Positions 32,548-35,349 of a stretch of 56,492 nucleotides of DNA are shown piece after piece. The stretch's first letter is position 1; every line of letters begins with the position of its first letter. The stretch spans positions 1 to 56,492 of the forward strand of contig CAILQO010000317.1 in the NCBI GenBank assembly GCA_903836285.1. The letters are read 5' to 3'. Below the pieces are notes generated by a model. That model did not search any database. It saw nothing but the letters and a program-made list of their open reading frames with translations, and was not told the DNA's origin. The DNA is from an uncultured Chloroflexota bacterium (GTDB lineage Bacteria > Chloroflexota > UBA11872 > UBA12225). The position numbers and the translations under genes are program-made.

Positions 32548-35349
32548 CTACGGCGTAAGGGGCTGCTCAACCGCCGTCCAGACGAACTCCAACGTCGTCT
32601 GCAGCCCGTCAAAGCGGTTATCGGCGGACTCCGGCAAGGAGACTTTCAGAGTCAGCGTATCCGTCTGGGACGGTTGCAGGACCTTGACCGGGGCAGTCGG
32701 GGCGACCCCGGCGGTGCAACCGGAGGTGTCGTCTCGAGGGATTGCGAAGTCGACCTTCACCGGACCGCAATAGAAGGAAGATAGTCCAGGTCGTCCCACC
32801 GTTAACTGGAGGCCCTGAACCGGGTCGGTGAAGAAGACCGTCCCGTCGCCCGCTCCGGATGCTGGCTGGGACTTGATCCGGTAGCTCAGCGCCTTGCGCG
32901 TGGTGTTGGTCACCGTGATCGTCCGCGAAAGCGTTGTCCCCGGTGCCATGTTGGTGGCGCTGAACACCGGAAGATAGGTCTGACCTGGAACCCCGACCCC
33001 GAACCCGATGGTGCGCGGGACGGCAACCACAAAGGTTCCACCGACCCGCGGTCCATTGATCGCCCGGGTGGTGACGCCCGCTTGGCCGGCAACCGGGTCG
33101 AGCGAGCGCATCGTGGCGCGCAGGACGCCGTTCGCCGAGTCGACACTGAGACCGGTGACCAGCGGCTCAAACCAGTCACTCGCGGTTGAGCTCCACTTGA
33201 GCAGCCGGATGCTGTCCCTGGAAACCGTCCCGTCTGCGAGCGGCGCCGTAAGTCGACTCACGTCAAACGGGATTTCGACGGTGATCGGTCCGGTAAAGAT
33301 TGCCGACGTGCTAAACCGGAAAGGATTCGAGAGGATCAGTTCACCGGATGGCGGGGTGGCCGTGGCGAGCGGTCCGGCATCCGCCTCCAGAAGGGTGATC
33401 CCCGGCTCGGTGACCAGGTCGAACGTGATCTTGGCGACTGCTCCGTCCCCGGGTGCGGCGATGGTTATTGAACTGCCTCGTAAGGTGAAGCCCACGGGTG
33501 TGGCGGTTCGGGTTGGGGTAAGGGTGACGGTTGACGTAAGCGTCGGGGTAAGTGTCTGGGTAGGCGATGGGGTCGAGGTGGCGGTCACCGTCGAGGTCGG
33601 TGACGCAGTCGCCGATGCGGTGGCGGTCGTCGTCGCAGTGACGGTCGAGGTCACCGTGCCGGTAGCGGTCGGTGTGGCAGTACTCGTTACCGTCTCCGTA
33701 ACGGTTACCGTCACAGTAGTTGTCTCGGTTGGAGTCACCGTCGTCGTGACGGTTCCCGTGACCGTCGCGGTCACGGTCGGCGTGCCGGTCGTGCCGACGG
33801 TGGGCGTTGGTGTGCCGGTCCCTGACGGAACGGAAGCGGTCGGTGACCCACTGGCAGTCGTCGGCGTCCCGGAGGCAGGGGCAGCGGTCGGCGATGACGC
33901 TGGCGGCGCTGTAGGCAACCCGAGCGCTGCCGCCGCGGCCGGCTGCAATGTAGGCGTCGCAGGCTCCGTTGCCTTTGCCCGGGGGGTCAGTTGCGCTGCC
34001 GCGGGGTCAAGCTGGCGCATCGCCTGCACGTCCGGGGTCGGCAGGGCGCCGAGCAGGGACGCCTTGGTCGGTGTCGCGCCGCCGTTCGCAACCACGACTG
34101 CCGTTTGGGTTGCACCCGCGGCGGCGGTCTTCTGCGCGGCGAGGGTCGCAATCTGCTGCCCAGCGGCGCCGGTAGGGGTCGGGCCGAGCATCGAAACGGT
34201 CAGGGCACCCTTGAATGGCTGCTTATCGACGACGATTGGCTCCGCGAAGTCAGATACCGACCCGTCGCCCTTCGCGGAGAGCCCCGTCTGCTGGATCTCG
34301 TTCGGCTTGATGTTCGCGGCGAACTGGGTTGATCCCCTGATCGCGCCGTCGTCGATGATTTCGCCCGCAATGTGATAGACGCCGCCAGTGCCTGTTCCGG
34401 TGTAGTTGGCGATGATCGACCGCTCCTTGCCTTCAGCAAGCGCGAACGAGATGGTCTGCGGTTCTGACTGCGGCCCTGAGTACTCGGCACCCGGGATCTG
34501 GTTTGCGACCATGGCGCAAGGGATTTCCGCGACGGAGACACACCCGGTTGAACGCCCCTTGTCGTCAGTGATGAGGGGCACGGCCGGTGATGCCAAGTTC
34601 AGGCGAATCGCGCGCTTCGGCGGCGGTGCGGGGATCGGTGCCGAGGGAGGTTGCCCAGGGGCGGCTGACGATTCGAAGCCGGGCTTCACGATCACCGCAG
34701 TCCGAAGGTCTTGCCCCGGCGCGGCCATTGCCACCTCTCCGTCAGCGGTCGCGACACTCGTGGTTCCGTCCGGCTTCACTTGGACGGCGAACTCCGTGCC
34801 CCGCACCACGGCAACCGCCGATTGGGTCTCCATCGCGAACGAGCTTGCCGGATCCAGGAGCTTGGATACTTTGGTCCAGGTCTTGCCGGCCACGATCTGG
34901 GTGCTGATTTCAGTGGTGACGCCGTTCGGGTTCTTCTCGACCTTCGTGAGGACAATTTCGGCGTCATCCTCGATCGATGTGGTCGAACCCTCGAAGTAGG
35001 TCACGAGGGCTGCGCTTCCGTCGACCGTCTTCACGGCGTCACCCGTCGTCAAGGTCTGCCCGTTGATGCCTTCCTTCCAGTCGGCTGCCCCCTTCGACTT
35101 CACTTGGGCTTGCCCGGAGAGGACCGTCAGGGTTGTCGCGTCGACGAGTGCCACCGCGATGGGCGGCCCCCCACCCGTCAGGACGTTGAGCAGGGGGAAG
35201 TTCCGGTCGCCGGTGATGAAGGCCGTGACGATGACGACAAGGGCCACTGTCGGAAGCCCGAAGATGAACGGCAGCGGCAGTGGTCGTTCGCCCTTCTTCT
35301 TGCCGAGGTTGGCCCCCTGAGGCTTCACCGATCGCGGTGCCGATGCCAT
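32548..35349 (-). CDS. large membrane-anchored surface protein: TM helix, FecR-like domain, Thr-rich linker, C-terminal TasA/camelysin-like module
   Basis: The ATG at 35349 lies 13 nt after the sipW stop; the ORF also extends to a TTG at 35445. TM helix LPFIFGLPTVALVVIVTAFI. FecR-like segment (GDAVKTVDGSAALVTYFEGSTTSIEDDAEIVL...VVRGTEFAVQV). The last 163 aa end in NMAPGTTLSRTITVTNTTRKAL...DNRFDGLQTTLEFVWTAVEQ. Compare TasA NLKPGDKL...FENNGSL...QNKYQGNSIKLQFSFEATQ. Confidence 0.75.
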   Translation of the reverse strand: MASAPRSVKPQGANLGKKKGERPLPLPFIFGLPTVALVVIVTAFITGDRNFPLLNVLTGGGPPIAVALVDATTLTVLSGQAQVKSKGAADWKEGINGQTLTTGDAVKTVDGSAALVTYFEGSTTSIEDDAEIVLTKVEKNPNGVTTEISTQIVAGKTWTKVSKLLDPASSFAMETQSAVAVVRGTEFAVQVKPDGTTSVATADGEVAMAAPGQDLRTAVIVKPGFESSAAPGQPPSAPIPAPPPKRAIRLNLASPAVPLITDDKGRSTGCVSVAEIPCAMVANQIPGAEYSGPQSEPQTISFALAEGKERSIIANYTGTGTGGVYHIAGEIIDDGAIRGSTQFAANIKPNEIQQTGLSAKGDGSVSDFAEPIVVDKQPFKGALTVSMLGPTPTGAAGQQIATLAAQKTAAAGATQTAVVVANGGATPTKASLLGALPTPDVQAMRQLDPAAAQLTPRAKATEPATPTLQPAAAAALGLPTAPPASSPTAAPASGTPTTASGSPTASVPSGTGTPTPTVGTTGTPTVTATVTGTVTTTVTPTETTTVTVTVTETVTSTATPTATGTVTSTVTATTTATASATASPTSTVTATSTPSPTQTLTPTLTSTVTLTPTRTATPVGFTLRGSSITIAAPGDGAVAKITFDLVTEPGITLLEADAGPLATATPPSGELILSNPFRFSTSAIFTGPITVEIPFDVSRLTAPLADGTVSRDSIRLLKWSSTASDWFEPLVTGLSVDSANGVLRATMRSLDPVAGQAGVTTRAINGPRVGGTFVVAVPRTIGFGVGVPGQTYLPVFSATNMAPGTTLSRTITVTNTTRKALSYRIKSQPASGAGDGTVFFTDPVQGLQLTVGRPGLSSFYCGPVKVDFAIPRDDTSGCTAGVAPTAPVKVLQPSQTDTLTLKVSLPESADNRFDGLQTTLEFVWTAVEQPLTP
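33490..33990 (-). repeat. imperfect Thr/Val/Pro/Ala low-complexity coding repeats (linker)
   Basis: Encodes ...TPTVTATVTGTVTTTVTPTETTTVTVTVTETVTSTATPTATGTVTSTVTATTTATASATASPTSTVTATSTPSPTQTLTPTLTSTVTLTPTRTATP. The DNA is a degenerate (GGT/GAC/GGT)n-like tract. Confidence 0.6.

Follow-up and report, generated by a model that had tools for sequence, protein, structure and literature searches.

A membrane-anchored FecR-stalk protein with a C-terminal TasA-superfamily module in freshwater Chloroflexota: a candidate acceptor for SipW-processed donor strands

Introduction

What is the role of a TasA-like domain that lies at the far end of a long, membrane-anchored protein? The question is raised by a gene on the minus strand (positions 32548-35349) of contig CAILQO010000317.1 from an uncultured Chloroflexota bacterium (assembly GCA_903836285.1), a stretch of 56,492 nucleotides that we call the window. 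The gene encodes a 933-aa protein, P0001. It closes a compact series of three genes on the minus strand, the others encoding an immunoglobulin (Ig)-domain protein and a SipW-type signal peptidase. A preliminary description of the DNA had proposed that P0001 joins a FecR-type sensor to a fiber subunit, in a combination that its author had not seen described, and that it might be a tethered anchor or nucleator or else a precursor that is processed internally.

It is becoming apparent that TasA-superfamily fibers form a donor-strand matrix system widespread among bacteria and archaea. In TasA polymerization, SipW frees an N-terminal strand that then completes the β-sandwich of the following subunit, and TapA, which shares only the N-terminal motif, has been proposed as the source of the first strand (PMC9674648). 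Ideas on how such fibers attach to cells remain mostly conjectural, with TapA, TafF and the anchors of AbpX loci all being proposals. Here, we find that the C-terminal module of P0001 is related to TasA and retains the jellyroll core apart from the signal and donor strand. The best explanation of these features, which we hold tentatively, is that P0001 is an acceptor-only, membrane-tethered base that would take up the donor strands of SipW-processed proteins.

Results

The C-terminal module is related to TasA

The gene and the parts of it that bear on the kinship with TasA are as follows.

32548..35349, minus strand: whole gene of P0001, a transmembrane (TM)-anchored protein with FecR-like domain, stalk and TasA-like module, 933 aa plus stop (open reading frame (ORF) list and translation; the nine full-length orthologue clusters share the architecture)
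32986..33042, minus strand: conserved pre-module segment GGTFVVAVPRTIGFGVGVP, residues 770-788, no signal peptide (invariant residues; outside the core aligned by hhalign)
32551..32970, minus strand: jellyroll core homologous to TasA/Peptidase_M73, residues ~794-933, with invariant C861 and C878 in an insertion (hhalign, A3 profile, AlphaFold2 (AF2))

The likeness to TasA had been noticed from two motifs, which we locate at residues 800-821 (NMAPGTTLSRTITVTNTTRKAL) and 910-929 (DNRFDGLQTTLEFVWTAVEQ). A phmmer search with the 168-aa module against 1.84 billion cluster representatives returned 54 matches at E≤1e-3; among the 32 of these that were scanned, 17 match PF12389 (best E 2.4e-13), 8 an NCBIfam TasA model and 5 the BsaA-type model. 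When the module and its phmmer matches were combined into a profile (A3), the search yielded 1138 proteins, nearly all of those listed carrying PF12389 and names such as 'TasA family protein'. Against the PDB, the same profile found Bacillus subtilis TasA (5OF1/5OF2 and 8AUR) at E 5e-7 and archaeal AbpX at E 0.008-0.011, and its matches to the TasA structures fall exactly on the two motif regions. Finally, hhalign aligned a profile of the nine orthologues only (A5) with one of 24 PF12389-annotated proteins (A6) at a probability of 99.1% and E 4.4e-19 over 118 columns, with A5 columns 44-185 falling on A6 columns 64-186. By these profile comparisons, the C-terminal module is a homologue of the TasA/camelysin superfamily, beyond what chance would produce.

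The aligned part runs from the equivalent of the self-complementing strand of TasA, residues 48-61 in that protein (PMC9674648), to the C terminus. The signal peptide and donor-strand part (TasA 28-38) has no counterpart in the A5-A6 alignment, which opens only at A6 column 64. No SipW-type signal directly precedes the module in P0001, where the only hydrophobic helix lies ~750 residues upstream, and the segment ahead of the module is internal and joined to the stalk, leaving no free N-terminal donor strand. This segment includes the GGTFVVAV stretch (residues 770-777) that the preliminary description had correctly placed before the module and found to match the GTxAxF pattern poorly; F773, V774, V775, A776, P778 and R779 are invariant across the nine orthologues. 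Residues 770-788 could be a cis-complementing strand or a linker.

AF2 gave a full-length model that was unusable (nine-sequence alignment, mean predicted local distance difference test (pLDDT) score of 40.6). For residues 751-933 with a 129-row alignment, the mean pLDDT was 75 and the predicted TM-score (pTM) 0.73. The module core is all-β with pLDDT 86-94, and the first 39 residues of this model, which include the invariant GGTFVVAVPRTIGFGVGV, have pLDDT <50.

The C861/C878 pair lies within an insertion of the TasA-like core, and actinobacterial TasA-like proteins have a cysteine pair at the same position. A metalloprotease, as the family name Peptidase_M73 might imply, is ruled out, the sequence containing no HExxH or other metal-binding motif. 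A word-indexed homologue search with the module alone returned one fragment only. We also note P0064, a 100-aa fragment 73% identical to the C-terminal half of the module that carries precomputed Redoxin/AhpC-TSA Pfam labels, and P0012, a 669-aa repeat protein whose phmmer match (E 1e-12) is spread over nine short stretches and resembles a compositional artefact.

The module is carried on a FecR-based stalk with a single membrane helix

The remainder of P0001, from the N terminus outward, divides into the following parts.

35272..35349, minus strand: predicted cytoplasmic tail, basic, residues 1-26 (read from the sequence; no Pfam or NCBIfam match; too short for an anti-sigma domain)
35209..35271, minus strand: single TM helix or signal anchor, residues 27-47 (hydrophobic stretch in the sequence; invariant columns in A1)
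34717..35136, minus strand: membrane-proximal FecR-like β domain, residues 72-211, with the Pfam core, residues 105-206, at 34732-35037 (PF04773; Lsa33/LipL45 models)
34165..34617, minus strand: β-rich region 2, residues ~245-395, with invariant C270 and C278 (no family match; conserved in orthologues; 37% identity with a head-less scaffold protein of genome G005)
33499..34164, minus strand: Ala/Gln-rich segment, residues 396-480, and Thr/Val/Pro-rich stalk, residues 481-617 (sequence; alignment indels)
33055..33498, minus strand: β-rich region 3, residues 618-765 (no family match; moderate pLDDT)

We take the ATG at 35349 as the start because orthologues open with the identical MASAPR. Basic residues (R6, K9, K17-19 and R22) precede the 21-residue hydrophobic stretch at 27-47, from which, by the positive-inside rule, we infer an N-in/C-out topology that would leave the remaining ~885 residues outside the cytoplasm. 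There is no second hydrophobic span in the 933-aa sequence. In the alignment of orthologues (A1, with invariance counted over nine), F44, T46, D48, N50 and P52 are invariant at or just past the end of the helix. The orthologues also share two invariant cysteine pairs, C270/C278 in region 2 (34165-34617) and C861/C878 in the module (32551-32970); the pairs fit an extracytoplasmic location and probably form disulfides. About 740 residues separate the helix from the jellyroll, and the first of the two motifs begins ~750 aa past the helix, so that the single helix and distant TasA-like segment of the preliminary description are confirmed, with a slightly shorter spacing than its ~770 aa. The possibility that the N terminus of P0001 is itself a TasA signal and donor strand moved away from the module was dropped, since hhalign gives it a probability of only 0.14% against the TasA family.

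A FecR-like domain had been placed at 34770-35135, and this assignment agrees with our searches. PF04773 matches residues 105-206 with E 6.2e-7 and 30.2 bits against a cut-off of 24. The NCBIfam Leptospira FecR-type models extend the domain to residues 72-211 (Lsa33, E 6e-12; LipL45, E 9e-9), both matches being partial and far under the family cut-offs (45 bits vs 420). A PDB search with the FecR region gave no relevant match. The Thr-rich tract, previously put at ~165 aa, spans residues ~455-617 by a generous count and ~481-617 otherwise; its length differs between orthologues, as seen from alignment indels, and it is probably glycosylated. The flanking regions (~245-395 and ~618-765) match no family in Pfam or NCBIfam scans. 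Within region 3, the poor full-length model reaches pLDDT 57-75 for residues ~680-750 only.

P0001 is encoded in a three-gene operon with SipW

The gene of P0001 follows two genes, the first of which encodes a segment that weakly resembles the N terminus of TasA-family proteins.

35363..35929, minus strand: SipW/archaeal-type signal peptidase I with SMAP and THRIV motifs (TIGR02228, E 2.7e-21, above cut-off; SipW model, E 4e-20)
35923..39132, minus strand: operon gene 1, encoding a secreted protein of ~1000 aa that combines an Fn3-like region with Big_5 domains and has a Pro/Thr tail (Big_5, E 6e-16; 966-aa orthologues at the same position; longest ORF)
38716..38763, minus strand: TEALFVAVIRNAGNAF, right after the hydrophobic region (h-region) of the gene-1 product, candidate SipW cleavage site and donor-strand-like segment (hhalign, sub-clade hidden Markov model (HMM), motif count)

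The stop codon of gene 1 overlaps the sipW start, and the sipW stop lies 13 nt upstream of the P0001 start. This three-gene order is kept in several metagenomic contigs at ~66% protein identity. After its h-region, the gene-1 product has a T-x-A-x-F...N-x-x-N-x-F segment like those at TasA-family N termini; at the position of TEALFVAVIRNAGNAF, distant gene-1 orthologues read TRAIFMAMITNPGNSF and a canonical family member TTATFTATTTNPGNQF. The TEALFVAVIRNAGNAF-type motif, which was defined post hoc, occurs elsewhere in only one canonical paralogue in 216,588 aa of ORFs.

G000, the genome of the window, also contains a paralogue of gene 1 (L001, contig C118, 3..1085, minus strand) with an h-region, TTALFSS... 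and an Fn3-like domain, arranged divergently beside a canonical multidomain TasA-like gene. With this paralogue next to a TasA-like gene, G000 has a further instance of a donor-motif Ig protein paired with a TasA-like protein.

The scaffold and the TasA-like head also occur apart

Among 41 related genomes, full-length orthologues of P0001 are confined to two genera of one family of freshwater Chloroflexota metagenome-assembled genomes (MAGs), and related loci come from such MAGs of Lake Baikal and Swiss lakes. In the protein database, the orthologues form nine clusters at 90% identity, none of them functionally named, and a literature search for FecR plus TasA returned only irrelevant results. 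The impression that the combination had gone undescribed stands insofar as it is rare and unnamed; it is qualified in that a C-terminal module behind a TM helix and linker also occurs without FecR. At least 10 of the ~52 nearest cluster representatives of the module have precisely this FecR-less arrangement, with a TM helix and Pro/Thr linker.

The FecR-stalk scaffold and the TasA-like head each occur apart from the other. In the sister genus represented by G005, a protein with the TM helix, FecR domain, region 2 and a very long stalk is 37% identical to P0001 over residues 61-597. Both a TasA-like module and SipW are missing from the G005 genome, and the upstream neighbor of the scaffold gene is an oxidoreductase gene; because scaffold, missing head and missing SipW coincide in this genome, SipW linkage tracks the TasA-like head. 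Conversely, P0046 (G009, contig C46), which is among the 10 or more nearest relatives just mentioned, is a FecR-less TM-stalk protein with a C-terminal TasA-like module, encoded ~2 kb downstream of TasA-like and SipW genes, and is a FecR-less counterpart of P0001. On that contig, the TasA-like module lies at 4-306 and SipW at 560-991, and P0046 itself is a 604-aa protein composed of TM helix, domain and Pro-rich stalk.

We observed a wider family of proteins with a TM helix or signal, a FecR-like domain and a Pro/Thr stalk, whose C-terminal parts vary (L027 on G005:C24, L028 on G023:C28, L032, L033, L034 and L035). By eye, these parts include a discoidin-like domain (L028), Ig-like or carboxypeptidase-regulatory-like repeats (L032, L034) and a glycoside-hydrolase-like region. 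Judged by these sequences, stalked surface proteins of this Chloroflexota family seem to share the FecR domain as a base of general use. The preliminary description was right that P0001 has a genuine FecR domain; its view of that domain as a sensor joined to a fiber subunit fits less well, because the scaffold bears other heads, or none, in sister genera, which argues for a modular base over a fiber-coupled sensor.

G000 itself encodes at least five canonical TasA-like paralogues, on contigs C578, C175, C549, C118 and C79 (L024, L002, L023, L001 and L003). In all of them the module directly follows the signal, as had been stated of TasA-family proteins in general. In most, the protein continues into Thr/Pro linkers and additional domains at the C terminus, the one on C79 running into a LamG-like region. 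A second SipW of G000 is encoded on C549, directly upstream of one or two TasA-like genes.

Discussion

A proposed acceptor at the tip of a membrane-tethered stalk

We propose that P0001 would be held in the membrane by its N-terminal helix and extend outward through the FecR-like domain, region 2, the Thr-rich stalk and region 3. The tip would then be formed by the TasA-superfamily jellyroll, which keeps the core of the fibre subunits without their SipW-type signal and free donor strand. Cleavage by SipW would free the N-terminal strand of a secreted partner, and this strand could enter the β-sandwich of the tip module by donor-strand complementation. The partner that most readily suggests itself is the co-operonic Ig-domain protein of ~1000 aa; canonical TasA-like proteins of the genome are the other candidates. 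The outcome would be a partner, or the donor end of a TasA-like fiber, tethered to the cell, with the FecR-like domain acting as a generic membrane-proximal base that does not signal. Support for such a socket comes from the homology of the module, its lack of a TasA-type signal and donor region, the conserved operon, the SipW linkage of the head, the P0046 locus, the presence of at least five canonical paralogues and a second SipW in G000, and the donor-like motif of gene 1. Of the roles suggested in the preliminary description, the tethered anchor or nucleator thus comes closest to the best reading, as an interpretation of the locus.

A more specific version, to which we assign rather little probability, is a two-part plug-and-socket display. 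A giant donor-only Ig protein, its N-terminal strand laid bare by SipW, would fit 1:1 into an acceptor-only TasA jellyroll on a FecR stalk that measures ~900 residues from helix to tip, with donor-strand complementation used to tether proteins non-covalently in place of polymerization, and the interchangeable FecR-stalk scaffolds would make up a lineage-specific display platform of Chloroflexota.

Several results weigh against the acceptor reading. Neither the isolated module nor the full protein matches PF12389 (Pfam Peptidase_M73) or the NCBIfam TasA and SipW-substrate models (NF046066, TIGR04088-90), even at E≤10; at that level, the module gave only sub-threshold WxLIP_PGBD and fn3_5 matches in Pfam and NCBIfam. 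The family-only profile A5 does not reach TasA in the PDB, from which it follows that the kinship to TasA runs via intermediates, and a PDB search with the single sequence found nothing meaningful. Foldseek comparison of the module model with the PDB gave no match at E≤1e-3 (best E 1.8e-3); the best 50 of 1282 matches at E≤10 are generic jellyroll or β-sandwich domains with TM-scores of 0.2-0.5, and TasA is absent from these 50. The structure prediction proposed in the preliminary description thus yields a confident all-β core and leaves TasA outside the best 50 matches; the homology rests on sequence profiles. The confidence of the model is limited to the module core, and the groove may be open or may be filled in cis by residues 770-788. 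The N-terminal helix, in turn, could be a cleavable signal, in which case the anchor would be lost.

The evidence that the gene-1 product donates a strand has its own weaknesses. Its N terminus aligns with TasA-family columns 29-52 by hhalign at E 1.1e-3 with a probability of only 20%, which is weak, and general N-terminal TasA profiles miss the gene-1 product. An HMM of the sub-clade N termini recovers gene-1 orthologues at E 4e-4, 0.02 and 0.16 and misses the copy in the window. The NCBIfam SipW-signal models do not match the gene-1 product, and they missed the positive controls too.

Alternative explanations

The most probable alternative, which we consider a real if lesser possibility, is that P0001 is a stand-alone stalked adhesin or wall-contact protein. 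Its jellyroll would be closed, completed in cis by the TFVVAV...IGFGVGV segment, and would act as a head for binding or spacing that exchanges no strands with other proteins, while SipW would process the gene-1 product only. The invariant pre-module segment could indeed be such a cis strand, although it is not confidently packed in the AF2 model. That the FecR-stalk scaffold bears unrelated heads in L028, L032 and L034 (by eye), and lacks a TasA module in G005, points to a display scaffold of general use, and the module matches the peptidoglycan-binding domain of WxL-interacting proteins in Pfam, albeit below threshold (E 0.0038, 17.7 bits vs a cut-off of 27.3). This explanation does not account for the finding that the TasA-like head, wherever it occurs, is strictly linked to SipW within an operon, nor for the second case, on G009 C46. 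It is unlikely, by comparison, that P0001 is a giant secreted subunit, in which the helix would be a SipW-cleaved signal and the whole 890-aa protein would be released to decorate or join a TasA-like matrix by way of the C-terminal module. In favor of this, sipW immediately precedes the gene, and the hydrophobic stretch ends in a possible small-residue site, V-T-A|F, next to the invariant F44, T46, D48, N50 and P52. However, the 21-residue stretch lacks a polar c-region and is anchor-like, the N terminus has no likeness to TasA-type signals or donor strands, and P52 would break a strand.

We consider still less probable the internally processed precursor of the preliminary description, in which cleavage ahead of the module would free a TasA-like subunit. 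GGTFVVAV lies just ahead of the module and SipW is encoded next door, but type I signal peptidases cut beside a membrane-embedded h-region, and there is none within about 720 residues of the module. The stretch does not match GTxAxF, hhalign aligns it to no part of the TasA signal or donor strand, and a freed fragment would begin at or after the donor-strand position and so lack the strand. The scarcely probable end of the range is occupied by a FecR-type TM signaling protein, an anti-sigma-like sensor of the state of the matrix or fiber. The FecR domain scores above the Pfam cut-off and the single-pass, N-in topology is that of FecR. Against this, the cytoplasmic part comprises ~26 residues with no match to an anti-sigma domain in Pfam or NCBIfam, and the operon contains no extracytoplasmic function (ECF) sigma or TonB-dependent receptor gene, its neighbors being sipW and the Ig-domain gene, then GNAT and ligA. 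Moreover, the best FecR-type matches are Leptospira surface adhesins and lipoproteins, and in relatives this domain is found at the head of many surface proteins that are otherwise unrelated. A FecR match need not mean a sensor, since FecR domains form the base of diverse stalked surface proteins in this lineage.

Comparison with known systems

The locus has the gene order of tapA-sipW-tasA in B. subtilis (5OF1, 5OF2, 8AUR; PMC9674648, PMC10151520), namely an accessory protein, a SipW-type peptidase and a TasA homologue. The jellyroll core is homologous to that of TasA via intermediates and keeps the N..PG...N and N.F.G......F.W/F.A.Q motifs, and the gene-1 product, with a TasA-like N-terminal motif and no jellyroll, follows the logic proposed for TapA. 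Unlike in the B. subtilis operon, the module here is C-terminal, ~750 residues past a TM helix, and lacks the SipW signal and free donor strand; both proteins that flank SipW are ~1000 aa long and multidomain, there is no direct PF12389 match, and the host belongs to the Chloroflexota.

Anchoring by a TM helix and a jellyroll is not new in kind, having been proposed for Tafi pili, where TafF of Haloarcula hispanica and TafF1/TafF2 (NJ7G_2829/2831) of Natrinema are the suggested anchors (PMC12337348). Those proteins likewise have one TM helix and a jellyroll-like domain in a TasA-superfamily pilus locus and are proposed tethers; we liken P0001 to them by architecture, not by sequence. As in Tafi-like anchors, P0001 combines a TM helix and a jellyroll homologue in a locus with TasA-superfamily and signal-peptidase genes. 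The jellyroll of TafF directly follows the helix, whereas a FecR-like domain, two regions and a Thr-rich stalk intervene in P0001, and Tafi pili are archaeal and Tat-dependent whereas the window locus is bacterial and SipW-linked. P0001 is set apart by the FecR-like base, the ~740-residue gap between helix and jellyroll, the minimal three-gene operon and the Chloroflexota host.

AbpX loci (bioRxiv 10.64898/2026.01.04.697558; 9SJ2, 9RHP) also combine TasA-superfamily proteins with a dedicated signal peptidase, tip proteins and anchors. Their SLH or LPXTG anchors are predicted to join by donor-strand complementation, and AbpX homologues have been noted in Chloroflexota (bioRxiv 10.64898/2026.01.04.697558). 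Anchoring there is to the wall, through SLH domains or sortase, and not by a TM helix at the N terminus; the associated peptidase contains ten such helices as opposed to the small SipW of the window, and a FecR domain is not reported. With Leptospira LipL45/Lsa33 and the FecR anti-sigma regulators (PF04773), P0001 has an extracytoplasmic FecR-type β domain in common, but it lacks a lipobox, an anti-sigma domain and sigma/TonB partners, and the match covers the domain only. The chaperone-usher subunits FimH and PapH and the PamR anchor of the Candidate Phyla Radiation (CPR) Pam pilus (PMC13278184) share the concept that a groove-only or strand-only subunit fixes one end and that a TM-anchored end subunit provides the tether; neither the folds nor the machinery are related, and the comparison is by analogy only.

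The family provides a clean natural case of a jellyroll core parted from its signal and donor strand and fused to the tip of a membrane-anchored stalk. If P0001 is an acceptor-only socket, it would determine, for a monoderm-type lineage of Chloroflexota abundant in deep lakes, the polarity of such assemblies and their cell-proximal end. The locus also offers two partners with which strand complementation could be tested simply in vitro.

Further features of the locus

The three-gene operon is flanked by ligA and a GNAT gene. At 38603-39132, the longest ORF of gene 1 overlaps the divergent ligA frame head-to-head. Because the orthologues are ~100 aa shorter at the N terminus, the true start of gene 1 is probably internal, around 38850-38910.

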